Positions 1-18,297 of a stretch of DNA of 18,297 nucleotides are shown piece after piece. The translations under genes and the position numbers were made by a program. The notes under the pieces were generated by a model, which was given only the letters and a program-made list of their open reading frames with translations, made no database searches and had not been told where the DNA came from. This DNA is from Candidatus Heimdallarchaeota archaeon B3_Heim (GTDB lineage: Archaea > Asgardarchaeota > Heimdallarchaeia > Hodarchaeales > Hodarchaeaceae): contig NJBF01000053.1 of assembly GCA_003144275.1 (NCBI GenBank), positions 1 to 18,297 of the forward strand. The letters run 5' to 3'. Each line of letters starts with the position of its first letter. Position 1 is the first letter of the stretch.

Positions 1-1322
1 CCTCCACAACATCGCGCGTGAGATCTATTGAACGTCATTTCTGTTAATTGAAGATCTGGTATTGCTTCCAAGATTTCACGAGGTGTATTATAAATACCAC
101 AGTGTCTTCCAAGAGAACATGGATCGTGGTATGTTATTTTTGCATTTAGAGGATTCAATCTCAATTCCTTAGTTTCTATCTTGTTTTTAATATATTGCGT
201 TGAGTGGAGAACTTCACACGGAATATTGAGATTGAAAATCTCTGGAAAAAGTTTCGTGAAGGTGTAAAAACATCCTGCACAAGGTGTAATTACCTTTTCA
301 ACCCCTGTTTTTTCAATTTTTTGAATAATTTCCTTCGCAATTATTTTTGCTTCATTCCACAGACCTGATGAAAATAAAACATATCCACAACATCCCTCAT
401 CTTCCCCTAGCATTGTAAAATTAGCTTGAACCTCTTTTAAAATGGTATAAAATGCTAAGGCGGTTTTAGGAGTACGATTTGATACCATACATCCAACCCA
501 ATAGAGAATATCTGGATTTTCGGAGAAATTCTTGTTAGTAATGTTGTTTAGCCAAGTAAAGCGTTTTTCACTTGGAGTTGCAGCTGGATCTCCAGTTCTT
601 GAAATATTGAAAGCAGTTGTCTGAAATATGTCAGGTCCTAATTTTTTTTCAGCAATTATATTTCTTACGTGAAAAATTGCTTTATGAAAATCTGATTGCT
701 TAGAGCTTTCACTAAAACAGTTCCCACACTCACTACAGGTGTATAGAATATCAATAAGCTTTTTTGAGGTTTCTAAATCCCCCTTCATTAATCCTCTGAT
801 CAAAAGCATTCTCCCCTTGGCTGACCATGTTTCAATTCCGTTACGAGAACGAGTTATTGTACAATATCTTCCACTAACATTATTTTGTAAGCACTTAGTT
901 AAGTTACTCTCTGAGATCAATATTTGTACTGCTAACGTAATGTTGTTTTGGACACTATGGGTATAATTCTGAATCTTATGTTTAAGCAGTGTCTTTCTTT
1001 TTCTTGGTTTTTCTGATCCGCTGCTGATTTCAGGTATTTTTGTATTATCTAGCAAAATTGATATTTTTGAAGGATCTCTCAATAAGAATGAATCTGATGT
1101 ATTTTTTCTATATATCGTGATATAATTTCTTCTCCCCCATTCTAATAATTTTGTAGAAGCAGTGAATTGATCATCCCTTACTATAATGTCAAACATTGGA
1201 TGAACTGGTTTTGTATAAATGTTTTCAAATGAATAAACATAGCGATCTTCAATATCAGTTAATACTTGAACCTCTGTGAATAATTGGCTCAATTCCTTAA
1301 CGAGCTCGCTTATAGATCTCAT
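1..1322 (-). CDS. HdrD/GlcF-like (Fe-S)-binding oxidoreductase with CCG domains; runs off the left edge (partial, 440 codons visible)
   Basis: Not in the ORF track because no stop lies in the window. Manual translation from ATG at 1322 is open to base 1: MRSISELVKELSQLF...ETWSAKGRMLLIRGLMKG...YTCSECGNC...LYWVGC...EGCCG...TPCAGC...TYHDPCSLGR...RCCGG. This is the ferredoxin-like domain plus two-CCG-domain layout of HdrD/GlcF proteins. Confidence 0.9.
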   Translation of the reverse strand, partial: MRSISELVKELSQLFTEVQVLTDIEDRYVYSFENIYTKPVHPMFDIIVRDDQFTASTKLLEWGRRNYITIYRKNTSDSFLLRDPSKISILLDNTKIPEISSGSEKPRKRKTLLKHKIQNYTHSVQNNITLAVQILISESNLTKCLQNNVSGRYCTITRSRNGIETWSAKGRMLLIRGLMKGDLETSKKLIDILYTCSECGNCFSESSKQSDFHKAIFHVRNIIAEKKLGPDIFQTTAFNISRTGDPAATPSEKRFTWLNNITNKNFSENPDILYWVGCMVSNRTPKTALAFYTILKEVQANFTMLGEDEGCCGYVLFSSGLWNEAKIIAKEIIQKIEKTGVEKVITPCAGCFYTFTKLFPEIFNLNIPCEVLHSTQYIKNKIETKELRLNPLNAKITYHDPCSLGRHCGIYNTPREILEAIPDLQLTEMTFNRSHARCCG

Positions 1323-1590
1323 TGCATTAACTCTGTATTAGTGTAAATAAGTATAAAATGGTTGTTCAGACTGGGAAAGGGATTCTATATCTTAATTATC
1401 AGTCTCGAAATATTGAAAATACAATTAAACAACGATCAAACTCATAAACTAGTACTTAATTTAAACCTTTTCATGACACTAGAGGTTTTTCCTTAAACCC
1501 ACGTTGAACAGAGCGATTCAAAATTGTAGCTTGGCTTGAACTTAAGTGAAAATAATGTTGATTAATCTGCAATTAGAGTAAAGGAAACAA

Positions 1591-1596
1591 AGGTGA
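1591..1596 (+). promoter_or_regulatory. Shine-Dalgarno-like site AGGTGA before the TTG start of dch
   Basis: AGGTGA lies 7 nt upstream of TTG 1604 and is complementary to the 16S rRNA 3' end (UCACCU). It supports the TTG start. Confidence 0.6.
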
Positions 1597-1603
1597 AGAA
1601 AAA

Positions 1604-2368
1604 TTGAGTGATGAATTAATTTTAGTCGAAAAAAAAGACTTTATTGGGAAAATTACCTTTAACAACGGCCCATTAAATATTTTGAATATTGAAATGATGG
1701 AACAGATCAATAAGACACTTGATAAGTTCCTAGAAGAAAATTCTCTCAAAGTGATTGTGTTTGATCACCTTGGAAAAGCATTCTCTGCAGGAGTCGATAT
1801 TGGGGAACACATGGGGGATTCTGTTAAAAAAATGTTAGAAGTATTCCATGGTATGTTTAAAAGGTTAAATCATATGAAAATCCCTACAGTCGCTTGTGTA
1901 AAGGGAGCTGCATATGGTGGGGGATGTGAGGTAGCTGCTTTCTGTGATATTGTATTAGCTTCAGAGAAAGCGAAATTTGGTAATCCAGAAATAAAAGTAG
2001 GAGTCTTTCCTCCTGTCTCAGCAGTCATATTTCCTTCTATACTTGGAGAGAAAAAAGCATTTGAACTTATATTACAAGGAGAGATTATCAGAGCGGAAGA
2101 AGCACACAGAATAGGCCTAGTCAATCAAGTATTCCCCTTAGAATCTTATGAACAAGATGTATCAGAATTTCTTGAAAGATTTAACAAATTAAGTACAATT
2201 GTGTTACAATATTCTAAAAAAGCTGTTAAAATAGGAATATCTGACTTTGAGACCAAATTAGACGAAGTAGAAGCTCTTTATCTCAATGAACTTATGGCAA
2301 CAACTGATGCGAATGAGGGGTTACAAGCTTTTATTGAGAAACGTCCACCTCAATGGCAGAATCGATAA
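1604..2368 (+). CDS. dch: Cyclohexa-1,5-diene-1-carbonyl-CoA hydratase (Dch/BamR-like, crotonase family), 254 aa
   Basis: Crotonase motifs AFSAGVDIGEH, GGGCE and GNPEIKVGVFPP with both catalytic Glu. The C-terminus EALYLNELMATTDANEGLQAFIEKRPPQWQNR resembles Dch/BamR. Directly upstream of had, with oah in the same cluster. Confidence 0.85.
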   Translation: MSDELILVEKKDFIGKITFNNGPLNILNIEMMEQINKTLDKFLEENSLKVIVFDHLGKAFSAGVDIGEHMGDSVKKMLEVFHGMFKRLNHMKIPTVACVKGAAYGGGCEVAAFCDIVLASEKAKFGNPEIKVGVFPPVSAVIFPSILGEKKAFELILQGEIIRAEEAHRIGLVNQVFPLESYEQDVSEFLERFNKLSTIVLQYSKKAVKIGISDFETKLDEVEALYLNELMATTDANEGLQAFIEKRPPQWQNR

Positions 2369-2435
2369 ATATTACTAATCTGAGATACTAGGAAATTAAC
2401 AATGAATAATTATAAGAAGACTGGAAGAAAATAAT

Positions 2436-3482
2436 ATGAGAGCTGCTGTTTTTGAAAAAATAAGAGAACCATTAAAAATTGTGAATGATTATCTCTCTCC
2501 TACTATTGATGGGAGAAATGGACAAGTACTAGTGGATATCACAGCCTGTGGTGTTTGTCATACCGATTTAGGATTTCTTGATCATGGAGTACCTACAGGT
2601 AAATCTCCACCATTAATTTTAGGACACGAAATGGCTGGACGAGTACATGAAATCAGTGAGGATGTTACAAATTTTAAGAGAGGAGACCATGTCCTTATTC
2701 CCGCAGTCATTTCTTGTGGTACCTGTTTTCAATGTAGGACAGGACGGGAAAACATATGTTCAAATCAAGTTTTTTTCGGAAGTAATGTTGATGGAGGGTT
2801 TGCAGAACAGATTATGGTTCCAGCGAAAGACATATTCCATCTTCCAGTAGAAATACCTTTGGAAGAAGGATGTATTATAGCTGATGCAGTGTCTACTCCA
2901 TATCATGCTGTTAAAAATCGAGGTCAAGTCAGACCAGGTGACTGGGCTGTTGTTTTTGGGTGTGGTGGGATAGGACTCAACGTGGTCCAGAATATTAAAG
3001 CTGCAGGTGGATTACCTATCGCAGTTGACATTATCTCAGAAAAACTAGATATTGCTAAAAAACTTGGAGCTGTTAAAACACTTTCAGCAAAGGAATTAGA
3101 TGACCGTGGTATAGTAGGAGCAATCCGAAAAGCTACAGGTGGAGGTGCAGACATTGCTTTTGAAGCAATTGGAAATCCTACGACATTTAAGCAAGCTTTT
3201 AATAGCTTACGAACTGGTGGAAGATTAGTTGCTGTAGGTTATTCTCCAAAACGATGGGATGGCTTTGATATTGGTCGTGTGATGTTTCGTGAAATGGAAA
3301 TAATGGGAAGTTTGGGGTGTCGCACCGTAGATTACCCACGTATCATAGAATTAGTTAAAAATGGTACACTTGTGGTTAAACCACTTGTAACAGGAAAATA
3401 TCCCCTTTCCGAAATAAATGAAGGATTTGATGTCATGCGACGAGGTGAAGGAGTACGAACTGTTGTTTTATGTCAAGAATAA
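2436..3482 (+). CDS. had: 6-hydroxycyclohex-1-ene-1-carbonyl-CoA dehydrogenase (Had/BamQ-like Zn-dependent MDR), 348 aa
   Basis: ACGVCHTD and LILGHE (catalytic Zn), CGTCFQCRTGRENIC (structural Zn), IADAVSTPYHAVKNR, and GCGGIG...VDI (NAD-type). DHGVPT...PPLILGHE and PAKDIFHLPVEIPLEEG are typical of Had/BamQ. Adjacent to dch. Confidence 0.88.
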   Translation: MRAAVFEKIREPLKIVNDYLSPTIDGRNGQVLVDITACGVCHTDLGFLDHGVPTGKSPPLILGHEMAGRVHEISEDVTNFKRGDHVLIPAVISCGTCFQCRTGRENICSNQVFFGSNVDGGFAEQIMVPAKDIFHLPVEIPLEEGCIIADAVSTPYHAVKNRGQVRPGDWAVVFGCGGIGLNVVQNIKAAGGLPIAVDIISEKLDIAKKLGAVKTLSAKELDDRGIVGAIRKATGGGADIAFEAIGNPTTFKQAFNSLRTGGRLVAVGYSPKRWDGFDIGRVMFREMEIMGSLGCRTVDYPRIIELVKNGTLVVKPLVTGKYPLSEINEGFDVMRRGEGVRTVVLCQE

Positions 3483-3577
3483 TATAGAGAAGTTCGATAG
3501 TGTATTTGAAGAGAGATTTCTTAGGAGAACTCATAAAAATGCAAACTAGATAACAGTTCTCTTGGGATTGAAAGAAA

Positions 3578-4720
3578 ATGAAAATCGGTATTGTTGGTAT
3601 TGGTCATAGCAAGTTTGGTAGACGTGATGATGTAACAGTTCAAGAACTTGCATTTGAGCCATTTGTTGAAGCGCTTATTGACTCAGGACTTCAGCGAGAA
3701 GAGATTGACGCTACAATTATTGGGGCATCTCCCGTTTATATGACCCAAAGAAGTATCGCAGGCCCCGTCACAGAATACTTGGGATTGAATCCGCAACCTG
3801 TTTGGTTGACTGAAGCTGCTTGTAGTAGTTCCGCATCAGCTCTAAGAACCGCGTATGCATTAATTAAATCTAAAATGCATAACACTGTCTTAGTTCTTGG
3901 TGTTCAAAAGATGTTAGAAAATCCAACATCAGAAATTCTAAAGATTATGGGACGAACAGGAGATGTTCAATGGGAAGCTCCCTATGGAACAACCTTTGCT
4001 AATTATTATGCAATGTATGCGAATGCTCATATGACGAAATATGGGACATTGTCGGAACAGCTTGCTGAAGTAGCGGTAAAGAATCACTATTATGGGTCGA
4101 AGAATCGTAAAGCCATGTTCCAAAAAGAAATTACGGTTGAAAAAGTTCTTGAATCACGGATTATTTCCTCACCTTTACATCTTTATGATTGCTGTGCGAA
4201 TGCGGATGGTTCAGCAGCTCTGATAGTATCGAATGAGGAAATATCCAAAAAAATATCTGATACTCCTATCTGGGTTGAAGGTTTAGGTGCAGCAACAGCT
4301 CCGTTTTCCCTTCTCACTCGACCCGAACTGAGTACCTTAACCAGTGCTGTTGAGGCCTCACAGGCCGCGTATACGCAGGCAAAGATTGATCCAACAAATA
4401 TTGATGTAGCAGAAGTTCATGATTGTTTCACTATAGCAGAAATCATGGCTTACGAAGATTTAGGTTTTACAGAGCGAGGCAAAGGTGGAGAGTTTGTGGA
4501 GAATGCTTACATTGGTGGTAAAGTGCCAATCAATGTCGATGGAGGCCTTAAAGCAAAAGGACATCCAGTGGGAGCCACAGGGTGTTCTCAAGTCGTTGGA
4601 ATTGTCCAACAACTTCGTGGAGAAGCAGGACAATGCCAAGTGGATGGAGCAGAGAAGGGTTTAACCCACAATGTTGGTGGTCATGGCCAGTATTGTCTCG
4701 TCCATGTCTTTTCGAGGTGA
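3578..4720 (+). CDS. SCP2/archaeal-type thiolase (acetyl-CoA acetyltransferase), 380 aa
   Basis: EAACSSS (nucleophile Cys), EVHDCFT (HDCF loop, 4418-4429), GGLKAKGHPVGATG and THNVGG. Immediately followed by a DUF35 domain, the usual partner of this thiolase class. Confidence 0.9.
   Translation: MKIGIVGIGHSKFGRRDDVTVQELAFEPFVEALIDSGLQREEIDATIIGASPVYMTQRSIAGPVTEYLGLNPQPVWLTEAACSSSASALRTAYALIKSKMHNTVLVLGVQKMLENPTSEILKIMGRTGDVQWEAPYGTTFANYYAMYANAHMTKYGTLSEQLAEVAVKNHYYGSKNRKAMFQKEITVEKVLESRIISSPLHLYDCCANADGSAALIVSNEEISKKISDTPIWVEGLGAATAPFSLLTRPELSTLTSAVEASQAAYTQAKIDPTNIDVAEVHDCFTIAEIMAYEDLGFTERGKGGEFVENAYIGGKVPINVDGGLKAKGHPVGATGCSQVVGIVQQLRGEAGQCQVDGAEKGLTHNVGGHGQYCLVHVFSR
4714..4720 (+). promoter_or_regulatory. 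Shine-Dalgarno-like GAGGTGA overlapping the thiolase stop codon
   Basis: GAGGTGA includes the TGA stop at 4718-4720 and lies 4 nt before ATG 4725. It supports 4725 as the true start and translational coupling. Confidence 0.6.
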
Positions 4721-4724
4721 AGTG

Positions 4725-5936
4725 ATGAAGCAATTTGGATATCGCGATTATATCTCCCAATCCAAGGTAGGAGTACAGCTTTTAAAGTCTTTAAAAGAGG
4801 GGAAATTAGAGGGAACTCAATGTACAAAATGTAATATTCCTTATTATCCCCCTAGAGCCTATTGCCGTGAATGTTTATCCGATGGAAATATAATAGGTCT
4901 TATTTTTTCAGGTAAAGGAACGATACTATCTTTTTCAGAAGTTCAGGTTCCTCCCGCAGGTTTTGAACGTTTTGCTCCATATACAGTTTGTATCGTGGAA
5001 TTAGATGAAGGAGGCCGACTTGTTGGTTGGATTGATCCAGGATCCCAATCTCTGAAAATTGGAGATAAGGTCCAAGTAAAGCCCGAAGTGATTGAGGGAG
5101 ATCGAGTAGTTTATAAAATTACAAGAGGAACATCTCCAGATGTCGATGTAAAGGCTGAAAAAGTAGCTCAAAATCTTGTAACAGGGAGTAACAAACTTCA
5201 GGGTAAGGTTGCAATAATAACTGGAGCAGGAAAGGGGATTGGGCGTGAAATTGCTTTAAAATATGCACGAGAAGGAGCTATGGTTATTGTAGCAGCTAGA
5301 ACGCTCAGTGATATCGAAACGGTGGCAAAGGAAATCAAACAATCTGGAGGAGAAGCAACTCCTATCATATGTGATGTTGGAAATGTAGAAAGTGTTCAAC
5401 AATTAATTATGAAAACTCTAGAAAAATATGAAACAATTGACATCCTTGTGAACAACGCAGGGATTTCTAAGAGTGCCCTAATTAGTAAAATGACTGATGA
5501 TCTTTGGAATTCAGTTATTAATGTGAATTTGAAGGGTACTTTCAATTGTATTCGTGCTGTTATTCCTCATTTCTCAACAAAACGACCTCTTGGAGGGAAA
5601 ATTATTAACTTCACGTCAACCGCGGCAAAATACGGTAACGTGGGTCAAAGTGCTTATAGTGCATCAAAATGGGGTGTTATCGCCCTTTCTAAATCTGCTG
5701 CACGCGAACTAGCCACTTACAAAGTGAATGTAAACTGTATCATGCCTGGTTATATAGAAACAGCCATGACAGCAGACACTCCATCTGTTTATAAAGAGCA
5801 AACCATAGCTCAAATTCCTCAAATGCGTATTGGTTACCCCGAAGACGTAGCGAAGGTTGCTGTATTTCTAGCCTCTTCCGATTCGGATTATATGACGGGT
5901 TCAATCCTTCAGGTCGACGGTGGATTGAGGATGTAA
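4725..5936 (+). CDS. Fusion of DUF35 (Zn-ribbon plus OB-fold) and a FabG-like short-chain dehydrogenase/3-ketoacyl-CoA reductase, 403 aa
   Basis: N-terminal CTKC...YYPPRAYCREC Zn ribbon and OB fold (GKGTILSFS, PYTVCIVELDEGGRL, LKIGDKV), a linker of about 20 aa, then an SDR with TGAGKGIG, NNAG, S...YSASK and PGYIET, all in one frame. Start moved from 4671 (inside the thiolase gene) to ATG 4725. Confidence 0.88.
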   Translation: MKQFGYRDYISQSKVGVQLLKSLKEGKLEGTQCTKCNIPYYPPRAYCRECLSDGNIIGLIFSGKGTILSFSEVQVPPAGFERFAPYTVCIVELDEGGRLVGWIDPGSQSLKIGDKVQVKPEVIEGDRVVYKITRGTSPDVDVKAEKVAQNLVTGSNKLQGKVAIITGAGKGIGREIALKYAREGAMVIVAARTLSDIETVAKEIKQSGGEATPIICDVGNVESVQQLIMKTLEKYETIDILVNNAGISKSALISKMTDDLWNSVINVNLKGTFNCIRAVIPHFSTKRPLGGKIINFTSTAAKYGNVGQSAYSASKWGVIALSKSAARELATYKVNVNCIMPGYIETAMTADTPSVYKEQTIAQIPQMRIGYPEDVAKVAVFLASSDSDYMTGSILQVDGGLRM

Positions 5937-5979
5937 TTATCTTTAAGTTTTCAGAAGAAAGACGATTTAATGAATTTGT

Positions 5980-7179
5980 CTATTCATCAGGAGTATATGG
6001 AGGAAGTTCATATCTTAACTTAGCAGATTTTCGGTATCCTAGAATGTATGATCCTTGGATTAATTTTTGAATTTCATTAGTTCCTTCAAGAATCGTATTA
6101 GCACGTGCATTTCTCCAGTATCTTTCAACTGGAAAGTCTCCACTATAACCCATTGCACCATGGATTTGGATTGCACGATTCGCAGCATCAGAAGCATGAT
6201 TTGTAGCTTGCCATTTTGCCATAGCTGTTTCTCTAGTATTTCTAATTCCTTGGTTTTTTAACCACGCGGCTTTATAGACTAATAACTGAGATTGATCATA
6301 GCCTGCTTGCATATAGGCGATATGTTCTTGAATTAATTGTAATTTTCCAATCTCTTGACCAAATGCTTTGCGTTCATGAGAATATTTCACAGCTGCTTCA
6401 ATACTAGCTCTTATAACACCACAAGCACCAGCTGCAACTGTAAACCTACCACTATCTAACGCTGTCATGGCTATTTTGAATCCTTCTTGCTCCTTCCCAA
6501 GGAGATTTTCAGTAGGGATTCTAACATCCTGCAGTATAATTTCACCAGTATCACCTGTCCTAACCCCTAATTTATCATGAAACGAACTTGTAGAAAGACC
6601 TTGCGATTCTTTTTCTACAATGAAAGCCGAAATGTCTTTATAGCCCTTTTCCTTCCCTAATCGTGCAAAAATTAAGAAATGATCTGCTACATCAACTAAA
6701 CTAATCCATTGTTTTGCTCCATTAAGAACAAACTCATCTCCTTCTCGTACTGCTTTCGTTTGAAGATTAGCAACATCTGATCCACATCCTGGCTCCGTAA
6801 GACCGTAAGCTCCAATTTTAGTTCCTTTTCCTTGAGGTAGAAGAAATTTTTCTTTTTGTTCTTTTGTTCCCCATTGGTACATTGTTAAACTCGACAAAGC
6901 CGTATGGACTGATAATATTACACGTAACGAGGTGTCTACTCGTTCCAATTCTTCACATGCAAGAGCTAAGGCCACATAATCAAGGCCTGCGCCTCCCCAC
7001 TTCTCTGGAATGCATACTCCAAGTATCCCCAATTTTCCCATTAATGGAAGCACTTTTTTGTATACAGATTTTTGTCGTTTATCATAATCGCTAATAATTG
7101 GAGAGACTTCACGCTCTGCAAAGTCTCGAACACTATCACGTAGCATAATATGTTCTTCTGAAAGTGAAAAATCGATCAT
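5980..7179 (-). CDS. Acyl-CoA dehydrogenase, glutaryl-CoA dehydrogenase-like, 399 aa
   Basis: YGLTEPGCGSD, NGAKQWIS, ERKAFGQEIG, QIHGAMGY and ILEGTNEIQ (catalytic Glu365). ELERVDTSLRVILSVH keeps the Arg that binds the distal carboxylate in glutaryl-CoA dehydrogenases. Start set at ATG 7179 (MIDFSL) rather than TTG 7194. Substrate is inferred. Confidence 0.8.
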   Translation of the reverse strand: MIDFSLSEEHIMLRDSVRDFAEREVSPIISDYDKRQKSVYKKVLPLMGKLGILGVCIPEKWGGAGLDYVALALACEELERVDTSLRVILSVHTALSSLTMYQWGTKEQKEKFLLPQGKGTKIGAYGLTEPGCGSDVANLQTKAVREGDEFVLNGAKQWISLVDVADHFLIFARLGKEKGYKDISAFIVEKESQGLSTSSFHDKLGVRTGDTGEIILQDVRIPTENLLGKEQEGFKIAMTALDSGRFTVAAGACGVIRASIEAAVKYSHERKAFGQEIGKLQLIQEHIAYMQAGYDQSQLLVYKAAWLKNQGIRNTRETAMAKWQATNHASDAANRAIQIHGAMGYSGDFPVERYWRNARANTILEGTNEIQKLIQGSYILGYRKSAKLRYELPPYTPDE

Positions 7180-7333
7180 ACAGTAACCATCCAAGTTTTT
7201 TATTTGATATTTTGAGCTGTTATACGGAATTTTCGTTTCTATATAGAGTAGTTGAGTTGGATTGTTGTAGTAATATAATTTTTATGATGAACTAAATAAC
7301 GTGTATACTATCACGATCAGAATCAATAGAAGG

Positions 7334-8452
7334 ATGAATGCTTTGAAAGATCATAATCTTTGGAAAGAGGAATATTTTGGAACGGATCCTCCGAATATAA
7401 CGTATGAGCTAAAGCCACTGGTCAATCCAAACGGTGATACGGTGGATAACCTATTTTCAGCATGGATTATACTCAATAATCCTCAACAACTGAACTCTTA
7501 TACAACAAAAATGGTGAAAGGAGTGATAGCAGGATTTTCTCGCGCATCAATGGATCGTAATGTAGTAACAGTTGTTTTTACGGGTGCAGGTGACCGTGCA
7601 TTCTGTACAGGAGGTAATACAAAGGAATACGCTGAATATTATTCTGGGAAGCCCAACGAATACGGACTTTATATGGATTTGTTTAATGCGATGGTAGATG
7701 CTATCCTGAACTGTAAAAAACCTGTCTTATGTCGTACCAATGGAATACGAGTTGCAGGAGGGCAGGAAATCGGTATGGCTGCTGATTTAACTATTTCAGC
7801 TGATACAGCTATATATGGACAAGCTGGCCCTCGTCATGGATCTGCTCCGGACGGTGGTTCGACTGATTTTCTTCCATGGATGCTTTCTATTGAAGACGCG
7901 ATGTGGAACTGCATTTCATGTGAGTTATGGAGTGCATATAAAGTGAAGCAATTAGGAATGATAACTGAAGTCGTTCCTGTGCTAAAAAGAGATGATAAAT
8001 TCATCCGAAATCCCACCATTATAACTGACAGATATATTCACGATGGAGAAATCGTTTATGGAGAATTCCTTTCTGGAAAGGAGTATAAAGATGCGAGAGA
8101 GGTTTTGAAAAGCTGTGAAACTGATTTTTCACTTCTTGATAAGGCAATTGATGATATAATATGGAAGTTCGCGAACCTATTTCCTGGATGTTTAATGAAA
8201 TCCATCGATGGAATCCGAATGAAGAAAAAATTCTTTTGGGATCAAACAAAACTTGCCAATCGTCATTGGTTATCTGCTAATATGTCTACTGAAGCATTAT
8301 TAGGTTTTCGTGCATTTAATGAGAGGAAGTTAACTGGAAAGGACACTATTGACTTCATCCAATATCGTCAGCTAATCGCTAACGCACACCCCTTCGATCA
8401 AAATCTTATTGATACAGTTTTACCTAAACCATTGAAAAATGAGGACTCTTAA
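7334..8452 (+). CDS. oah: 6-oxocyclohex-1-ene-1-carbonyl-CoA hydrolase (Oah/BamA, ring-opening), 372 aa
   Basis: Diagnostic stretches NSYTTKMVKG, AFCTGGNTKEYAEYY, GGQEIGMAAD, GQAGPRHGSAPDGGSTDFLP and GFRAFNE match Oah/BamA. Start set at ATG 7334 (MNALKDHNL) rather than GTG 7301. Confidence 0.95.
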   Translation: MNALKDHNLWKEEYFGTDPPNITYELKPLVNPNGDTVDNLFSAWIILNNPQQLNSYTTKMVKGVIAGFSRASMDRNVVTVVFTGAGDRAFCTGGNTKEYAEYYSGKPNEYGLYMDLFNAMVDAILNCKKPVLCRTNGIRVAGGQEIGMAADLTISADTAIYGQAGPRHGSAPDGGSTDFLPWMLSIEDAMWNCISCELWSAYKVKQLGMITEVVPVLKRDDKFIRNPTIITDRYIHDGEIVYGEFLSGKEYKDAREVLKSCETDFSLLDKAIDDIIWKFANLFPGCLMKSIDGIRMKKKFFWDQTKLANRHWLSANMSTEALLGFRAFNERKLTGKDTIDFIQYRQLIANAHPFDQNLIDTVLPKPLKNEDS

Positions 8453-9660
8453 TGCAATTTTCAAACACTTTCATTCCCTATGGATGCTATTGGAGCTCTC
8501 CGTTTGTACGTTGGCAGGGGAGCTTTGCTAACCAAAACTCTATACAACTCGCTGCGGAAGTTGCTACTCTAGCTCTAAATAAACGAAAGATACAACCTGA
8601 AATCTTTAATTCAATATATTTAGGGATTACTATTCCTCAAGTACATAGTTTTTATGGTCAAACTTGGTTATCTGGTCTTCTTGGAGCTCCCAATATTACA
8701 GGGCCGATGATTGCACAAGCATGTGCCACTTCTACACGAGTAATCGCCAATGCAGCATCTGAAATCGAAACACGAAGTAACCCCAATCATACCATACTAG
8801 CCATTACTTGTGATCGAACAAGCAATGGTCCTCATATCCTCTATCCTGCTCCTTTAGCACCTGGTGGAAAACCGAATACTGAAAATTGGGTCTGGGATAA
8901 TTTTAGCTTCGATCCATATGCAAAAAATCCAATGATTCAAACTGCAGAGAATGTATCGAGAGATGCAGGAATAACACGAGAAGCCCAAGAGGAAGCTACA
9001 TTACTCCGTTACAAACAATATGACCAAGCATTAAAGAATGACGCAGAATTTCTCAGAAAATTCATGATCTCACCCATTGAGGTAAAGTCTGGAAGAAAAA
9101 TTATTGCTACAGTTGAAAAAGATGAAGGAATTTACCCTACTTCAAGAGAAGGATTAGCTAAACTAAAACCAGTGTCAAAAGATGGTTCAGTAACTTTTGG
9201 GACACAAACTCATCCAGCAGATGGAAATTGTGGATTGATTCTTACAACTCGGGAAAAAGCCAATGAAATTTCTCTAAATTCAGATTATGAGATTCAGATC
9301 CTCTCTTTTGGTCAGGCTCGTAGCAAGAAAGGATTTATGCCCATGGCTCCAGTACCTGCTTCCCAAAAAGCACTTGAATCAGCTAAACTCTCAGTTGGTG
9401 ATATTACTGCTACTAAGTTACATAATCCTTTTGCTGTTAATGATGTCTATTTTAGTGAGGAAATGGGAATTTCACTTACCTCAATAAATAACTATGGTTC
9501 ATCACTTGTATGGGGGCACCCTCAAGCCCCAACTGGGATGCGTTTACTTATTGAACTAATCGAAGAACTAGTGATAAAGAAAGGGGGTCACGGTCTTTTT
9601 ACAGGCTGTTCTGCCGGTGATTCTGCAGCAGCAGTCGTCATCAAAGTGAATTCGGTTTAA
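8452..9660 (+). CDS. Thiolase of the family found in anaerobic aromatic-degradation clusters (candidate 3-oxopimeloyl-CoA thiolase), 402 aa
   Basis: IPYGCYWSSPFVRWQG N-terminus, AQACATS (Cys), DRTSNGPH, HNPF loop (9421-9432), WGHPQAPTG (His) and GCSAGD (second Cys). The ATG overlaps the oah stop (TAATG at 8450-8454). Confidence 0.85.
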   Translation: MQFSNTFIPYGCYWSSPFVRWQGSFANQNSIQLAAEVATLALNKRKIQPEIFNSIYLGITIPQVHSFYGQTWLSGLLGAPNITGPMIAQACATSTRVIANAASEIETRSNPNHTILAITCDRTSNGPHILYPAPLAPGGKPNTENWVWDNFSFDPYAKNPMIQTAENVSRDAGITREAQEEATLLRYKQYDQALKNDAEFLRKFMISPIEVKSGRKIIATVEKDEGIYPTSREGLAKLKPVSKDGSVTFGTQTHPADGNCGLILTTREKANEISLNSDYEIQILSFGQARSKKGFMPMAPVPASQKALESAKLSVGDITATKLHNPFAVNDVYFSEEMGISLTSINNYGSSLVWGHPQAPTGMRLLIELIEELVIKKGGHGLFTGCSAGDSAAAVVIKVNSV

Positions 9661-9668
9661 ATTAAAGG

Positions 9669-9703
9669 AAAAAATTGGCAGTATTAATCCCATTACTGCC
9701 GAT
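9669..9703. terminator. Hairpin terminator between the convergent thiolase and hbd genes
   Basis: GGCAGTA (9677-9683) and TACTGCC (9694-9700) form a perfect 7-bp stem with a 10-nt loop, extendable by 3 pairs including one G-U. An A-run at 9669-9674 becomes a U-tract after the hairpin on the minus strand. Confidence 0.6.
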
Positions 9704-9718
9704 GAATTCTTTAAATTT

Positions 9719-10609
9719 TTAGAAAGACCGAGGCGTTGGAGGATTTGTGGAATAATCGTAAAATCCCATTCCTGTTTTCCTTCCAAGATGATTTGCACGC
9801 ACCATTTTTCGAAGTAATGTTGGAACACGGTACTTTGAATCTTGAAACTCTGTAACGAAATAATCAGCTATGAAAAGTGTTGTATCTAGACCTACAAAAT
9901 CTAACAGAGTAAATGGACCCATAGGATGATTTAAACCTAAAGTTATTGCTTTATCCATATCTTCAACCGTTGTTACTCCTTCTTGTAATGTAAATATTGC
10001 CTCAAGGAAGAATGGTAGCAGGAGACGATTAACTGCGAACCCAGGTGCTTCATTAACGAGTACAGTCTCTTTTCCCAATTTCTGGGAAAGTTCATCAATG
10101 AACTTATATGTTTCATCTGAAGTTTCATATCCTTTAATTATTTCAACCAATCGCATCACAGGTACAGGATTGAAAAAATGCATACCAATGAACTTATCTG
10201 GACGTTTTGTTGCTGCAGCCATGTCAGTAATAGATATTGATGATGTATTAGAAGCAAAAACCACGTTTGGATCACAGATTTCTTCCAATTCTGTATAAAC
10301 TTTACGTTTTAAGTCCCTATTTTCAATTATTGCCTCAATAACCACATCAGCTCCTTCTGTGGCTTCTTTCAAATCGGTAGTTCCTTTTATTCTACCTAGA
10401 ATTTCGTTCATTTGATCTTGAGTCATTTTTCCTTTTTTAACCCCACGTGACAAATTTTTATTAATCATAGACAGACCTTTTTCTATGAAATGGTCTTCAA
10501 TATCCCTCATGGCAACTTGATACCCAGCTTGAGCACAGACTTGAGCTATACCATTACCCATTAATCCTGCTCCTATAACACATATTTTTTTCACATTATC
10601 AATCTTCAT
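9719..10609 (-). CDS. hbd: 3-hydroxybutyryl-CoA / 3-hydroxyacyl-CoA dehydrogenase (NAD-dependent), 296 aa
   Basis: VIGAGLMGNGIAQ...RDIE (NAD-type Asp), FASNTSSIS, GMHFFNPVPVMRLVEII, PGFAVNRLL, HPMGPFTLLDFVGLD and LGRKTGMGFY. Start set at ATG 10609 (MKIDNVKK); the 20-aa extension in the ORF track is AT-rich upstream sequence. Confidence 0.88.
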   Translation of the reverse strand: MKIDNVKKICVIGAGLMGNGIAQVCAQAGYQVAMRDIEDHFIEKGLSMINKNLSRGVKKGKMTQDQMNEILGRIKGTTDLKEATEGADVVIEAIIENRDLKRKVYTELEEICDPNVVFASNTSSISITDMAAATKRPDKFIGMHFFNPVPVMRLVEIIKGYETSDETYKFIDELSQKLGKETVLVNEAPGFAVNRLLLPFFLEAIFTLQEGVTTVEDMDKAITLGLNHPMGPFTLLDFVGLDTTLFIADYFVTEFQDSKYRVPTLLRKMVRANHLGRKTGMGFYDYSTNPPTPRSF

Positions 10610-10799
10610 TTGATGAACACCGTTAAATATAATGATGGTAGAAAGTAATAAATAATTATAGAAGAGCATTTTTAGAATTTTTGTTTATTTCAAAATCGAA
10701 AGGTTGTATGAAGTGTTATAAATTCAAACTAGCAAGAAATACAAAATTATTTTACTCTAAACCTAATGAAATATCAAGAAGAACCAAGATACACATAAA

Positions 10800-12389
10800 T
10801 TACAGTTTTTGAGAAATTAAATTATTGTATCGCTCACGTAGGATTCTGTGAATGATTTTACCAGAGCCTGTTCTTGGTACATCTTCGTAATCAATAAAAA
10901 AGACCTTTTTTGGAACTTTGAATCTAGCTAAATGCTCTTTACTATGATTCATTATATCCTCCGCTAAATCTTCGGTAGCTTCAAAATTTGGTGCCAGAAC
11001 ACAAATAACGGTAACAGACTCTCCCCATTTATAATCCTGTAATCCTATCACTGCACATTCAAGTACAGCAGGCATTGCATTAATAGTTTTTTGTACTTCA
11101 GATGGAAAAACATGTTCTCCACCCGTAATTATCATATTCGCCTTTCTATCAACGAGATATAAATATCCATCCTCATCTCTTTTAGCCATATCTCCTGCAC
11201 TGAAAAAACCATCTTCCATACTCTCTAATGTTTTTTCTGGTAACTTATGGTATTCTGTGTGTTGCATAGGACCACGAGAAAATAATTCACCGATTTCTCC
11301 ATCAAGTATTAGCTTTCGTGAATTGGGATCCAAAATTTTGATATTATCTGTTCCAATACATTCCAAACCTATTGAACCAGCTTTTTTGAATTGATCTTCT
11401 GGTCTCAAAATTGTTACGAGGCCTGCTTCGGTAGAACCATATGCTTCAAAAAGCCTTACATCCTTAAATAACGCCATAACTTCATATTTCATCTTTTTTG
11501 TTGCAGGAGCTGAGGATGTCAAAAGTGATCGGATGGAACTTAGATCATATTTCTTCAGGATTTCATCTGGAAGACACAGGATTAAATTATAATGGGTGGG
11601 GATCATACTGGTAAACGTGATTTTTTCCTGTTCAAAAATTTGTAATACATCTTCAGGGTTAAATTGATATTCAAGATGAACATAGACACTTGCACCGATA
11701 TATGTGAAAACAAAAGCGTAAAACGTAGAATTAACATGGGACAAAGGCATTAAGACTAATCCGTAATCATCTGGTGTGAAGGAGAATTCTGCTGCATTGA
11801 TTAGAAAAAAGGATATATAGGAACGATGGGAGCGAACAACACCCTTAGGTTTGCCAGTTGTGCCAGAGGTATATAGAAGAATCCATGTATCTTCGGAGTC
11901 TACCTGAATTAAAGGATATTCATCTTCACCTTCTTCTACAATATCCTTGTAATAACTCCAGTTTTCTAAAACTGGAATTTCCCCAATCAAAACATGTTGA
12001 AGATTATCTAGTCCGAATTCAATGACCAAATCCCAACTCTCAATTGTTAGGTCATAATATCTATCTTGAACCATGACCATTTTTACTTCAGCATTTCGCA
12101 CGATCCAATAAAGATCAGTTGGTAGAAGTCGGAAATTCAGGGGAACAATAATTAGACCTGCTTTTGCAGCTGCGCCGTAAATTTCCATAAATTCAACACA
12201 GTTATTTAGTAGAACCGCTATTTTATCTCCTTTCTTCAAACCTCTTTTGAGTAAACCGTTCGCTAACATATTAGTTCTTATATCATAATCTCTAAAGGTA
12301 AGTGAGCGGTTTTTATCCTTAACTGCTAATTTATTGGGATATTTAAGAGCATTAACCCGAAGAATTTCTCCCAGATGTAACCAATTCAT
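10800..12389 (-). CDS. AMP-forming acyl-CoA synthetase/ligase, substrate unknown, 529 aa
   Basis: LYTSGTTGKPKG P-loop, YGSTEAG, GDMA, DRKANMIITGGEHVFPSEV and FKVPKKV...PRTGSGKI. It lacks the WLYSSGSTG and FFAYGLGN signatures of benzoate-CoA ligases as I recall them. Confidence 0.88.
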   Translation of the reverse strand: MNWLHLGEILRVNALKYPNKLAVKDKNRSLTFRDYDIRTNMLANGLLKRGLKKGDKIAVLLNNCVEFMEIYGAAAKAGLIIVPLNFRLLPTDLYWIVRNAEVKMVMVQDRYYDLTIESWDLVIEFGLDNLQHVLIGEIPVLENWSYYKDIVEEGEDEYPLIQVDSEDTWILLYTSGTTGKPKGVVRSHRSYISFFLINAAEFSFTPDDYGLVLMPLSHVNSTFYAFVFTYIGASVYVHLEYQFNPEDVLQIFEQEKITFTSMIPTHYNLILCLPDEILKKYDLSSIRSLLTSSAPATKKMKYEVMALFKDVRLFEAYGSTEAGLVTILRPEDQFKKAGSIGLECIGTDNIKILDPNSRKLILDGEIGELFSRGPMQHTEYHKLPEKTLESMEDGFFSAGDMAKRDEDGYLYLVDRKANMIITGGEHVFPSEVQKTINAMPAVLECAVIGLQDYKWGESVTVICVLAPNFEATEDLAEDIMNHSKEHLARFKVPKKVFFIDYEDVPRTGSGKIIHRILRERYNNLISQKL

Positions 12390-12647
12390 ATTTAATCAAA
12401 TCTCGACTAATATTTGTTGTCATTATATACAATAATTCCTTATTGGAGGTCCTATTTTAATAACTGAAATTTTTATAAGTTCTACACGTATTATTGAAGG
12501 ACTGAAGGAATCTTATTAAACCTTGAAGAACCTATAATTACCACTTATAAATTCTTAGATTATAATCCAAGTTCTTCTAATACAGTTTTAATTGCTTCTA
12601 ATTTGTTAGAGGAAAGACATCAATAATTTCAATAACCAGGTTAGAAA

Positions 12648-13311
12648 CTAAATATTCAGTCTGAGAAGTCGTCTTAAAACTAAAAAAACAGTAAATACTG
12701 AAATAGACAAGACCGGTGCCCAAATAAGTCCGTCAATCACCATCGCGCCTCCAAAATATACAATATTGTATCGAGAAGAGGCAATGGTTAGATCAAAACC
12801 CATAGCAGTAAGTCCAATAACCGAAAATAATAAAAGAATGAACACGATAAGTTCCTTATTGTTATAATATTCCATTTTTCTTGATTTAAAGATAGTGTTT
12901 TTCAAATATCGGTCTGCTATAAAATAAATCAAGATCCAAGCTAGAAGAGGAGCAAGAATGAAGGAAATGACATTTATGGCCGGTGATTCCACCCCAATTT
13001 GCTTTTGGTTTATCAACAGGGTACGGAGTTTCAATTATGTCTAGTAAGTCCCTCAGAGGGACTAAAGAACCGACTGGTTTTTGAGTTAAACGATAGAAAA
13101 TAGTCATCAGTTGATCTAACACGGCTTCAGTGGCATTTTCTTCATCAAATTTTCCACCGAATTTTGCTAGAAATTTGGCTAAATTTGAGTCTCCAATAAA
13201 AATGCTCATTGATTTTTTCTCGATATGAGCTCTTGTTTCTTTCCTAAGTTTCTGTATAAATTCAACAGGGGTTAATTTCGGATAACTAATTTCCTTCATT
13301 TCCGTATGCAT
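12648..13311 (-). pseudogene. Frameshifted gene for a hypothetical membrane protein of about 220 aa (ORFs 12886-13311 and 12648-13034 joined)
   Basis: The two same-strand ORFs overlap by 149 nt and span 664 nt (3n+1). Removing one base near 12978-12984 gives a continuous read ...PYPVDKPKANWGGITAINVISFILAPLLAW...: a soluble N-terminal domain followed by about 3 TM helices. Confidence 0.6.
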
Positions 13312-13560
13312 TCGTGTTGTTTTGGATTAGAAAAGATTAAACATTTCATTGACTTTTAATTGAGTAAGATTGATATTTCAGAATAATTAAAAAAGTTTCA
13401 CACAAATAACTTTGTCGTAAAATATTAGTTATACCCAAGATAACATTTGGGAGTATAGGCACTCAACCGAATAGATTTTGAGCATTCCTGAATTTAATAA
13501 CCAATACTCCAATAAACAGCTGATTAATTCAGTCATTTTCATTTTTGGTAGACAATAACT

Positions 13561-13598
13561 TAATAAAAAACTAGGAAAGAGGAAAAATGAAAAAAAGA
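13561..13598 (-). terminator. Oligo(T) tracts after the large surface-protein gene (archaeal-type terminator)
   Basis: The minus strand directly after the stop reads TCTTTTTTTCATTTTTCCTCTTTCCTAGTTTTTTATTA, with no hairpin. Confidence 0.45.
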
Positions 13599-16500
13599 TT
13601 AGATGTTCTTTCGTCTACGTACTGTAATTACCAGTACGATCAAGAAAAATAGGCTTACATAAAAAACAAGAAATGGTGTGTTAACAAAAGTAGATGACGG
13701 TTGGGTAGTAATAGTTGATGAGGTACTTGAAGTAAGTGCTGTCACTGTCATACGTTTAAAGACACCTGAACCAGCACTGCCAAAATAGAGAAAATTTCCG
13801 TCTGCTGAACACACCATCATATTCGCGACGTTGTTGCCGTTAGTACCAGCCACCAAGTCAGTTAGCCCCTCGTTCCAGGATAGCCAGCTAGCACCACCGT
13901 TACAACTAATAAAGACTCCTTCACCCTGTGTAGCCAGATACAATATGTCAGGATCTCGCTTGTCAACAATGATCTCGTAGAATTCCTGATCGATATTCAA
14001 CCCAGTAGTAATTTCAAACCAATGAGCCCCACCATCAGTGCTTTTCATCACTGTCCCTCGGAATCCCTCACACCCACTTCCCTCGTTCTCCCCGTTCTTG
14101 GAACAGGCATACATCACATTTGGATTCTCAGGATCGAAATCTATGGAAAAGACCCATTGTTCACTTGGCCAACCTCGATTCCACGTTTCCCAATGACCAC
14201 CGCCATCTGTTGCGAGGTTCACCCCATTGTAAGTGCCAGCATAGATAATATCTGGGTTCTCAGGATGGAATACCAGACAAAAGACGCCATCATTGGCCCA
14301 ACCGATGTTACTTTCCTGCCAATTTTGACCCCCATCTACGCTTTTGTAGATACCAGATGGGAATGTACCAAAGTAGATCACGTTGGGGTTTTTGGGGTGA
14401 ATAAGCAGTGAAGTATATTGATAAAGTGGCCTGTTGTCCCAAATAGGCCAGAGACTCCCAAACTGGCCAAAAGCATTCATCTGTACCCATCTATCATCTG
14501 AAGTACTATAGTAATATAGTTCATATCCTAGGCTGCCACACAATAACATTCCGTCAGCAGACCATGCAAGGCTTTTAACTTGAGACGTGTGTAGTCCAGT
14601 ATTGAAAGAACTCCATGTTTTGCCTCTATCACTCGTAACAAACACTCCTTCTTCGCTGCTGACATATATCGTATCCGAATCAGTAGGATCAACCACAACA
14701 GCAGTTACTAGTCTCCCACACATCTCGTTAGCGTCCCCAAATAGAGGTATCTGACTATCAGCGCCATCATTCGATGCATAAACTCCTTTACCATAAACAG
14801 TAAAGTAGAGTCTGTCTGAATTCGTAGGATCAATTGCAAAGTTATAATATCCCTGCCTGATAGGGTCATCCACCTCAAAACTTGGTAGAAAGAAATTCTT
14901 GTCTTTCCATGTTTTTCCACCGTCCACTGTCTTGAACATGCCTCCAGGATAAGAACTTGCATAAACTACATCAGAATTTGTGGGATCAACGACTATCTGG
15001 ATGTTGTAGATTTCAGGTTTAGGTCCATCAGTAGAAGTCCAACTTACTGTATAATCTACATTGACATCACCAACGTAGACTCCCCCACCGCGGCTTCCAG
15101 CATATATTTTATTCCCGCTGATAGATAATGAGCCTATGCTTCTGAAATCAAGTCCATTATTCTGGATTGTCCAAATATCACCGCCATCTGTTGTTAGATA
15201 AACACCGTTCGCTCCTCCAGCATAAATTACGTTTGAATTCTCAGGATGTATAACTAATGCCCTACAAGGACTATTTATAACACCTCGATTTATATTTTCC
15301 CAGCTTGATCCATTATCATCACTCTTATATACTCCATGTGTTCCTATATCTTCAGGTGAGACTGGAGGGAAAAAGTTTGGATCTAAGAGCTCTTCAGGAC
15401 ATCTTCTTCCCATAATAGTAGCAGCATAAAGAATATCTGTATTAGAAGAGTCTATTTCAATGTCAAAGGTACCAACTATTGGCATAGAGTCCAAATTCAG
15501 CCAACTTACTCCTCCATTAGTTGTCTTATAAACATTCTCGCCATGTAATGAAACGTAGATCATTTGTGAATCTGTGGGATCAACGGCAATGTCAATGATG
15601 GCTCTGGGAAGGCTGCCTGTTATATCCGTTGATACTTCTCCCGTAATTCTGAACAAACTACCAAGAATAGCATTATGTTTGAAAGCTGATACATAGACAG
15701 TATTAGGGTTGCTTGGATCAAGCTTTATCTTAAACAATCTGGAGTAACCAGGACCCGCATCAAAAGCAATTTCCCAAGTCTGTCCACCATTTACCGATCT
15801 ATACAAGATAGGTTGCGCCCTACCCGCAGCATAAACTATGTCTGGATTCACAGGATGGGTAGTGACACTTGCAATCGATAAAGTGGAGATGTTCTCTAAT
15901 TCTATCCAAGATTCACCGCTATTTACAGTCTTAAACAATCCTGCCCCCCAAGGGGCGGCATAGAGTATTTCTTCGTCCGTTGGATCAATAGCTAGTTGAT
16001 TCTGGGAGTGTATTGTGCTGAAGAAGAAATGTTCGTTGAGGTTGATCCAGCTACTCCCCGCGTTGTAACTAACCCTGATATTACCTCCATATCCCGTGTC
16101 ACCTACGTAAACTGTATTAGGGTTGGTGGGGTCGATGGTCACTGAAGTAATCCCATGGGAACCGGATACATTAAGAGATGTCACCCATGAATCACCTCCA
16201 TCGGCCGTCTTACGGACTATCGCAAATTTTTGGAAAGGCTTAGGGAGGTAGCCGCTATAAACGATGTCGGAATTTGTAGGATGGACAGCTATACTATAGG
16301 TATAATCCACTTCAGATTGGTGTAGGAAACGCCAACCTTTCCCACCATTTGTGCTCTTGAAAATTCCAAAACCGTTCTTTAGCGCGTAAATTGTGTTTGA
16401 ATCTGATGATGCTGGTGCCAAAGTATACACCGAACCAAAACGGAAACCCTCACCATAGGAGTCGATAACTTTGTCCCATGAAACACCCCCGTTCGTTGAT

Positions 16501-17810: not shown

Positions 17811-17846
17811 CGTGATCTTCCTAATTGTTTGGATCCGATATTGAAG

Positions 17847-17859
17847 AAATATATATTTA
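17847..17859 (-). promoter_or_regulatory. Candidate TATA box for the surface-protein gene
   Basis: The minus strand reads TAAATATATATTT, 37-49 nt upstream of ATG 17810; 17847-17858 is the perfect palindrome AAATATATATTT. The region is AT-rich, so a chance match is possible. Confidence 0.35.
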
Positions 17860-17955
17860 CTAGAAATAGTATTTGTATTGAAACCATCTCTTCTATTTTA
17901 TTAGCTCATAAAATTACAATAATAACTATATCTCGATTGATGAGTAACTTCAATT

Positions 17956-18297
17956 CACTGGCCGTTTTAAGTCTAATGGATTAGTTCATCACATTTTTAT
18001 CACCTGACCTTTAAAATAACCTTTCCGCTATCAAGTAAGAGTTAGGCCACGGTTCCAAGTCTGAATAACGTAAATTCTCTAGTAATGATGTTAAATGATC
18101 TTGCCAACGAGTAAAACCGAGAAGGAGAAGATAATAAAAGAGGATGATTTGTAATAAAGTCACTAACAAACAATGGGTGACAAAACTCATCCAAGATTTC
18201 CCCAATGGACGTTTAATTGTGGTGTGTTGTTTAATCCATTGAAACAAGGTTTCGATCTCCCAGCGTTCCTTTTGGAGTTGAAGCACCGTTAAGGGAG
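17956..18297 (-). mobile_element. Downstream end of an IS4-family insertion sequence (continues beyond the window)
   Basis: Contains the transposase C-terminus. The candidate terminal inverted repeat starts CACTGGCCGTTTTAAG at 17956, resembling CACT-starting IS4-family ends as I recall them. The boundary is tentative because the partner repeat is outside the window. Confidence 0.55.
18011..18297 (-). CDS. IS4-family DDE transposase, C-terminal part (5' partial)
   Basis: The frame stays open upstream of GTG 18286 to the window edge (..PLTVLQLQKERWEIETLFQWIKQHTTIKRPLG). R-(3)-E-(6)-K spacing matches the IS4 YREK signature, and RWxIExxFxWIKQH is typical of the family. Confidence 0.85.
   Translation of the reverse strand, partial: PLTVLQLQKERWEIETLFQWIKQHTTIKRPLGKSWMSFVTHCLLVTLLQIILFYYLLLLGFTRWQDHLTSLLENLRYSDLEPWPNSYLIAERLF

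Follow-up and report, generated by a model that had tools for sequence, protein, structure and literature searches.

A putative one-cubane, HdrD/GlcF-type iron-sulfur relay in a Heimdallarchaeota genome

Whether an oxidoreductase built like HdrD can work with a single cubane is the question raised by the first gene of the window, the whole stretch of 18,297 nucleotides analysed here (positions 1 to 18,297, forward strand, of contig NJBF01000053.1, assembly GCA_003144275.1, Candidatus Heimdallarchaeota archaeon B3_Heim, an Asgard archaeon of the Hodarchaeales). This gene encodes an iron-sulfur (Fe-S) protein with five of the eight cysteines of two ferredoxin-type motifs, and the original prediction, made from the letters of the stretch, held that an HdrD-like protein had deleted exactly one of its two [4Fe-4S] clusters and was a selected variant with a rewired electron path and probably a different partner. 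A published generalisation has non-cubane (NCB) domains invariably linked to a domain with two cubanes; a one-cubane architecture, if true, would be an exception to it. Structural definition of HdrD/EtfD/BamD-type modules is only now under way, and natural versions with eight, seven, six and five or four ligands in the same gene context would form a series suited to questions of relay number and of the dismantling of [4Fe-4S] clusters.

Judged from sequence comparison, the window protein is probably a soluble electron-transfer protein of the HdrD/GlcF type that carries a single cubane beside two non-cubane clusters, the distal cubane having been given up stepwise. The one-cubane state itself can be assigned with moderate to high confidence, and the old distal site is expected to hold no cluster.

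Cysteine ligands and the missing cluster

The open reading frame (ORF) of the Fe-S protein lies on the minus strand (window 3..1322), comprises 440 codons inside the window and is open at the window start, which is base 1 of contig C52 of the source genome. Its parts are as follows.

3..1322, minus strand: Fe-S protein gene, ~513 aa, residues 1-440 in the window; the contig start cuts the gene
1023..1322, minus strand: flavin adenine dinucleotide (FAD)-domain stub, residues 1-100, equivalent to the first subdomain in GlcD-like FAD-binding domains of the VAO/PCMH type
528..905, minus strand: alpha-helical ferredoxin-like (HdrC-type) domain, residues 140-265, with predicted ligands for one cubane only
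861..893, minus strand: what remains of motif 1, C144-x9-C154, with Cys I and IV kept, Cys II = Asn147, Cys III = Ser150
705..737, minus strand: motif 2, C196-x2-C199-x2-C202-x3-S206, Cys I-III kept, Cys IV = Ser (AGC)
258..509, minus strand: CCG domain 1, five Cys (278, 311, 312, 348, 351), Pfam PF02754 at residues 272-355
3..137, minus strand: CCG domain 2, first part, with C402, C438 and C439; the closing CxxC (CPLC) is on contig C46

The final ~58 residues are found in frame on contig C46 of the same genome (G000:C46:1-177, plus strand), together with the closing CPLC and a stop codon. Because the C-terminus is present there and the window begins at the first base of its contig, the truncation at the edge is an assembly break and the gene itself is not truncated; a truncation beyond the window, against which the original prediction had guarded, is ruled out. 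The two contigs C52 (window 1-2) and C46 (G000:C46:1-2568) abut, and the assembly gap between them covers ~17 residues of the protein.

In the translated part cysteines stand at 144, 154, 196, 199, 202, 278, 311, 312, 348 and 351, and further at 369, 402, 408, 438 and 439. Aligned to relatives with eight Cys (C-x2-C-x2-C-x3-C twice), C144 (codon 891-893) and C154 (861-863) take the places of Cys I and Cys IV of motif 1, with N147 (882-884) and S150 (873-875) at Cys II and Cys III; in motif 2, C196 (735-737), C199 (726-728) and C202 (717-719) are Cys I-III, and S206 (705-707), the codon of which is a single base away from TGC, stands at Cys IV. Translation and alignment bear out what had been read from the letters, namely that motif 1 retains C144 and C154 alone, that motif 2 has lost its fourth Cys, with S206 in its place, and that CCG domain 1 has all five of its Cys. 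The pattern is not a sequencing error, because C-x9-C occurs in six sequences from different sources and S206 also in P0004, a protein from another metagenome that is 79% identical to the window protein. As a description of this protein the deletion of exactly one cluster is real; as a conserved state it was overstated, since the closest relatives keep C206 and S206 recurs in only one other sequence. Random loss of three of eight Cys would hit one and the same cluster in all three cases with p = 0.14.

The cluster concerned can be identified by comparison with Mycobacterium smegmatis EtfD (PDB 9OJN), where cubane D3 is held by Cys311 and Cys412/415/418 and cubane D4 by Cys301/304/307 and Cys422, electrons passing from ETF to D1 and D2 (the CCG clusters), then to D3, D4 and heme (PMC13083937). 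The same structure upholds the ligand bookkeeping of the original prediction, in which each cubane takes three Cys from one motif and the distal Cys from the other. For BamD the chain E4-D1-D2-D3-D4-ETF was reported, with the distal cubane D1 as acceptor of electrons from BamE (preprint 10.64898/2026.04.10.717634). A profile alignment places residues 196/199/202/206 of the window protein onto EtfD 412/415/418/422 (hmmsearch E = 1e-60 to 9ojn_A), and because of this alignment onto the D3/D4 ligand map the four retained ligands (C154 and C196/C199/C202) are those of the cubane beside the CCG clusters; of the distal cubane, which is bound by Cys I-III of motif 1 and Cys IV of motif 2 and is the equivalent of EtfD D4 and BamD D1, three of the four ligands are lost. 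Proximal and distal are assigned from the EtfD structure paper and the sequence alignment. As the lost cluster would be the terminal, distal cubane, the electron wire seems shortened at its outer end and neither interrupted nor rerouted, so that the predicted rewiring of the electron path gives way to a chain that is simply shorter.

Compensating Cys were searched for in the ferredoxin domain of the clade that underwent these losses (the loss clade), and none was found. The only clade-enriched Cys is C408 (window 99-101), six residues past the first Cys of CCG domain 2 (HDPC-SLGRH-C); five of the six loss-clade sequences have it, as do 26 of the 123 remaining family members.

Order of the losses and their maintenance

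The window protein belongs to a family of '(Fe-S)-binding proteins' of ~511-516 aa from Hodarchaeales, other Asgard archaea and Bathyarchaeia, which are collinear over their full length. It aligns to 120 of them with 100% query coverage, the N-terminal stub included, at 44-88% identity, and shares with the family the position beside acyl-CoA genes and genes of the Fer4 and aldehyde oxidoreductase (AOR) families. The source genome has one gene of the ~511-aa family only; a 394-aa paralogue with 27% identity was assigned to another group.

All eight Cys are found in 96 of 129 family members. In 26 only Cys II is lost, which leaves C-x5-C-x3-C, the classical [3Fe-4S] signature of 7Fe ferredoxins and SdhB; five lack Cys II and Cys III, and two, the window protein and P0004, lack Cys IV of motif 2 as well. 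On the maximum-likelihood tree these states are nested (8C to 7C to 6C, the last step twice, to 5C). The 7-Cys state goes back to the root of a clade with 34 rows. The 6-Cys state has two origins, one in P0008 (Cys to Trp), the other in the common ancestor of the window protein and P0003-P0007 (support of 100 in the Shimodaira-Hasegawa-like approximate likelihood ratio test, SH-aLRT), and the 5-Cys state arose a single time (SH-aLRT 98). All 33 incomplete patterns within the ~511-aa family affect ligands of the distal cluster only (Cys II, Cys III twice, motif-2 Cys IV), and no member has lost a proximal ligand; in the wider superfamily a proximal position is changed in 2 of 154 sequences (P0225, P0265).

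The same cluster is missing in a deep subfamily of Bathyarchaeia (L040, L043, L044, P0131, P0132; pattern xxxCCCCx), in which all four distal ligands are lost and exactly the four proximal ones kept. This subfamily resembles the window protein in architecture, stub included, in the cluster lost and in the four ligands kept, yet it differs in its separate origin, an identity of 30-38% and the additional loss of Cys I, so that its loss is independent of that in Hodarchaeales and convergent. A 393-aa relative of bacterial type (P0228) has the same xxxCCCCx pattern. Loss of the outer cubane would accordingly have arisen at least two times in the protein family.

The nested states give the sequence of events: the loss of Cys II came first and left a ligand set of the [3Fe-4S] type, Cys III was lost next, and Cys IV of motif 2, by then useless, followed. 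The 7-Cys intermediates (26 relatives) resemble the [3Fe-4S] sites of 7Fe ferredoxins and SdhB; the window protein, in contrast, is two steps further, where a 3Fe cluster with Cys ligands is impossible. The remaining cubane (C154 and C196/C199/C202) and both CCG sites are intact and under purifying selection.

Several points weigh against this account. C144 is invariant in the 5- and 6-Cys forms of Hodarchaeales, for which the account offers no explanation; Cys III and motif-2 Cys IV are both now Ser, an occasional Fe-S ligand; in the AlphaFold2 (AF2) model of a 5-Cys homologue, which carries no cofactors, residues 137-149 have a predicted local distance difference test score (pLDDT) below 50, with no 8-Cys model for comparison; the selection signal discussed below comes from a crude method applied near saturation; and gene neighbourhood is the sole basis of the partner assignment. 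The first two points, with Ser at two of three replaced positions, would suit a cluster still built at the old site with C144 and non-Cys ligands (Ser150, Ser206 or Asn147), its nuclearity or potential perhaps altered, and in BamD and EtfD the distal non-cubane clusters are remodelled by Cys-to-Ser/Thr changes without being abolished (10.64898/2026.04.10.717634; PMC13083937). Such a cluster is nevertheless improbable: a single thiolate would be left to it, the residue at Cys II varies widely (N, S, R, H, K, G, T) and so seems free of constraint, P0005 has Ile and P0008 has Trp at Cys III, C144 itself is gone from the Bathyarchaeia clade, and Ser is in any case one base from Cys.

Decay of the whole gene or of its ferredoxin domain, with no functional redox enzyme left, would fit the Pfam Fer4_8 score under its cut-off, the low AF2 confidence at residues 137-149 and the truncated look of the gene in the window. 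Against this stand the C-terminus on C46 and an ORF that is open in all seven loss-clade sequences, as well as the retention of all ten CCG cysteines and all four proximal-cubane ligands. Selection was estimated as the ratio of nonsynonymous to synonymous divergence (dN/dS) with the crude method of Nei and Gojobori (NG86), at dS values of 0.6-1.4, near saturation. For the loss clade the ratio comes to 0.19-0.25 overall, with values of 0.12-0.16 for the ferredoxin domain; the window gene compared with two 6-Cys orthologues gives 0.21-0.25 overall and 0.15-0.16 in that domain, and the two orthologues compared mutually 0.12 for the latter. A 6-Cys/7-Cys pair of the sister clade (G020/G005) has a ferredoxin-domain value of 0.15, and for the pair G003/G005 dS of this domain is undefined by saturation. 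Loss-clade members share 76% identity in the motif-1 region and 73% over the whole protein (ratio 1.04), the corresponding ratio in the 7- and 8-Cys clades being 1.15-1.2, which would indicate at most slightly relaxed constraint on motif 1. Crude as they are, these tests argue against decay, which we regard as very improbable. The claim of the original prediction that a mono-cluster form is maintained, and is not a product of random decay, agrees with the low dN/dS, the conserved degenerate motif, the nested stepwise losses and the convergence in Bathyarchaeia.

Domain architecture and relation to known systems

In Pfam the protein matches two CCG domains (76 bits), and for Fer4_8 (PF13183) it reaches 14 bits, below the gathering threshold of 27, a match that many 8-Cys relatives carry precomputed. 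None of the NCBIfam equivalog cut-offs is reached, the best-scoring models being TfrB, GlpC, LdhH and DsrK, and the family profile matches the HdrC chains 5odc_C and 7bkb_C. The designation 'HdrD-like' was therefore apt for the architecture and not for the family, as no named family cut-off is attained. With HdrD and HdrBC the window protein has the domain architecture and the ten CCG Cys in common, as in HdrB (five in CCG domain 1, then C402, C438, C439 and the CPLC on C46). HdrD, however, possesses two complete CxxCxxCxxxC(P) motifs, of which the window protein keeps two of four and three of four Cys, and the window protein scores far under the NCBIfam cut-offs for it. No gene for HdrE, the cytochrome-b partner, was found in the window or the loci of eight relatives, a genome-wide search for HdrE not having been made. 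CoM-S-S-CoB is not known to be made by Asgard archaea.

The origin of the architecture is suggested by the N-terminus. In a fold search with residues 1-100 about the top 24 matches were N-termini of VAO-type flavoenzymes, D-lactate dehydrogenases among them (Z 8.8-4.7), and FAD_binding_4 was the commonest weak Pfam match at the N-terminus (5 of 23 members); the remainder of the flavin domain beyond this stub of ~100 aa is absent from the window protein. Among bacteria, the nearest relatives of the Fe-S part, with ~33% identity, are full GlcD-Fer4_8-CCG fusions (864 aa, L060, Desulfobacteria) or have a 460-aa GlcD gene directly upstream of the Fe-S gene. The archaeal family is thus a GlcD-HdrD fusion stripped of its flavin domain save the stub. 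Deletion of the flavin domain is a plausible reason why the distal cubane became dispensable, because the ancestral internal donor beside it is gone. GlcD-GlcF fusions carry FAD_binding_4, FAD-oxidase_C, Fer4_8 and two CCG domains, whereas the window protein is without this flavin module except for the stub and reaches 28 bits in NCBIfam GlcF against a cut-off of 333.

EtfD of M. smegmatis (9OJN) and the EMO of S. aciditrophicus represent the best solved homologue (E = 1e-60 over residues 193-511), with a fold match of E = 2e-20 in Foldseek and a soluble module of an HdrC-like part and two CCG domains in both. In EtfD, though, this module is joined to five transmembrane helices and heme b and holds two cubanes, while the window protein is soluble, with one cubane site; its N-terminus is the soluble VAO-type stub and not a membrane domain, and its maximal hydropathy over 19 residues is 0.97, that is, without any hydrophobic segment, which rules it out as an EtfD/EMO. 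The distal non-cubane cluster is remodelled in EtfD (a linear [3Fe-4S] cluster) and in EMO and disrupted in the majority of BamD homologues; the window protein, unlike EtfD, keeps ten CCG Cys. BamD of the class II benzoyl-CoA reductase of G. metallireducens is, like the window protein, soluble, similar to an HdrBC fusion and placed in a context of aromatic degradation, and its CCG end docks ETF (preprint 10.64898/2026.04.10.717634), but BamD is encoded with, and wired to, BamB (W-BCR), BamC and the HdrA-like BamE, and genes for BamE, F, G, H and I are absent from the vicinity of the window protein's gene. The window protein is neither a true HdrD nor a BamD.

In the literature searched no description was found of a mono-cubane HdrD-type protein or of the ~511-aa family. 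The one-cubane form would be a new variant, recurrent in its family and caught here in graded intermediate states. We give about even chances to the broader proposal that one cubane suffices in HdrD/NCB-type oxidoreductases, the distal one having become dispensable after deletion of the flavin domain and having been lost convergently, in Hodarchaeales via a [3Fe-4S]-type intermediate and in Bathyarchaeia, with a minimal architecture of one cubane and two non-cubane clusters that couples AorAB to ETF or to thiol chemistry. The bearing on broader questions is limited, as loss of a single cluster in ferredoxin-like domains is a familiar theme and unsurprising by itself; attention is also drawn to a widespread, uncharacterised protein of Asgard archaea and Bathyarchaeia between genes of aromatic/acyl-CoA catabolism and a tungsten aldehyde oxidoreductase.

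Gene neighbourhood and candidate partners

Beyond the start of the Fe-S gene the window contains two further features.

1323..1603, no strand: intergenic region from which the Fe-S gene and the enoyl-CoA hydratase (ECH) operon diverge, an arrangement conserved in genus relatives
1604..12389, no strand: putative catabolic context cluster, with Pfam and synteny as evidence

By Pfam this divergent cluster comprises an ECH (Dch-like), a zinc-type alcohol dehydrogenase (Zn-ADH, Had-like), a thiolase, DUF35-SDR, an acyl-CoA dehydrogenase, a 383-aa ECH (Oah-like), a thiolase, a 3-hydroxyacyl-CoA dehydrogenase and an acyl-CoA synthetase (CoA ligase), and it is read as a probable lower benzoyl-CoA pathway with beta-oxidation. 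A 1403-aa ORF adjoins it (window 13599-17810, minus strand).

On its other side, in five same-genus relatives and in the source genome, the Fe-S gene is followed by a Fer4 gene in convergent orientation and a gene of the AOR family; in the source genome they lie on C46 after the end of the Fe-S gene, with AOR at 682-2568 on the minus strand. Past AOR the relatives have a ThiS-like, a GNAT, two HGD-D and two BcrAD genes, the order in L014-L018 being ECH operon, Fe-S gene, Fer4, AOR, ThiS, GNAT, HGD-D twice and BcrAD twice. Of 19 informative loci across Asgard archaea and Bathyarchaeia, 16 have AOR and Fer4 beside the Fe-S gene, and because this adjacency recurs in differing orientations, it argues for a functional link. 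The link is not universal, because one 7-Cys clade (L019, L020, L021, L029, L031) keeps the divergent ECH, Zn-ADH and thiolase genes without adjacent AOR and Fer4; in L019 methyltransferase genes come next after the Fe-S gene.

The neighbouring AOR scores 350 bits to 1aor and 235 bits to BamB 4z3w, with 1aor and 8c0z above BamB, and the Fer4 protein has its nearest match in 8c0z_C, the AorA subunit of AorABC from Aromatoleum. A BamB-BamC-BamD reading of these flanking genes was considered and rejected, since the AOR resembles true AOR/AorB more than BamB, and the Fer4 resembles AorA more than BamC; against it also speaks that neither BamE-I genes nor an HdrA-like gene of ~1000 aa lie nearby. 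Matches to the AOR family occur at eight places in the source genome.

Electrons would probably pass directly into or out of the remaining cubane, which would most likely face the AorA-type polyferredoxin of the neighbouring tungsten aldehyde oxidoreductase, and the CCG end would most likely face ETF, as in EtfD, EMO and BamD, or a thiol/disulfide substrate. These partner identities, taken from neighbourhood and analogy, are put forward with low confidence. As an encoded neighbour ETF was rejected, because in the source genome it lies on C30, and just two loci, both Loki-type (L028, L035), have it next to the gene, so that a link of ETF to the window protein would follow from analogy to EtfD, EMO and BamD only. 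On C30 (G000:C30:6434-10672; L022, L023) the ETF beta and alpha genes are located directly past a 419-aa acyl-CoA dehydrogenase; in the retrieved part of this region no HdrD-type gene was found.

A switch of redox partner, together with the rewired path, was part of the original prediction, and two observations favour it: the lost cubane is partner-facing in BamD and heme-facing in EtfD, so that docking geometry must change, and the 7-Cys clade without adjacent AOR genes suggests that partners may vary in the family. The neighbourhood, however, is identical in 7-Cys (L017, L018) and 6-Cys (L014, L015, L016) relatives and stays constant across the transition; in the 5-Cys source genome it is the same as far as assembled, with Fer4 and AOR past the gene; the fully mono-cubane L043 and L044 still stand beside AOR and Fer4; and the remaining chain from cubane to CCG to CCG is unaltered. 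A different partner is therefore unlikely, and the expectation that there was probably one was not confirmed.

In the same-genus relative L015 (12907-18339) the ThiS/MoaD-like, GNAT, two HGD-D and two BcrAD genes show the four-subunit layout of a class I (ATP-dependent) benzoyl-CoA reductase, the equivalent region not being assembled beside the window. A single-strand operon of the Loki/Hermod type is found in Hermodarchaeota (L026:2875-14232) and also in L024, L028, L035 and L039, and contains an acyl-CoA synthetase, a thiolase, one HGD-D, MaoC, the stub-HdrD, AOR, Fer4, a PanE/ApbA-type reductase and one BcrAD/HgdC-type ATPase. A related HdrD-type gene with the same set of HGD-D, BcrAD, ligase and thiolase genes is present in Desulfobacteria (for example L054, L057, L059 and L072), in L060 as the 864-aa GlcD-HdrD fusion; the whole looks like an undescribed 2-hydroxyacyl/aryl-acid route common to both domains.

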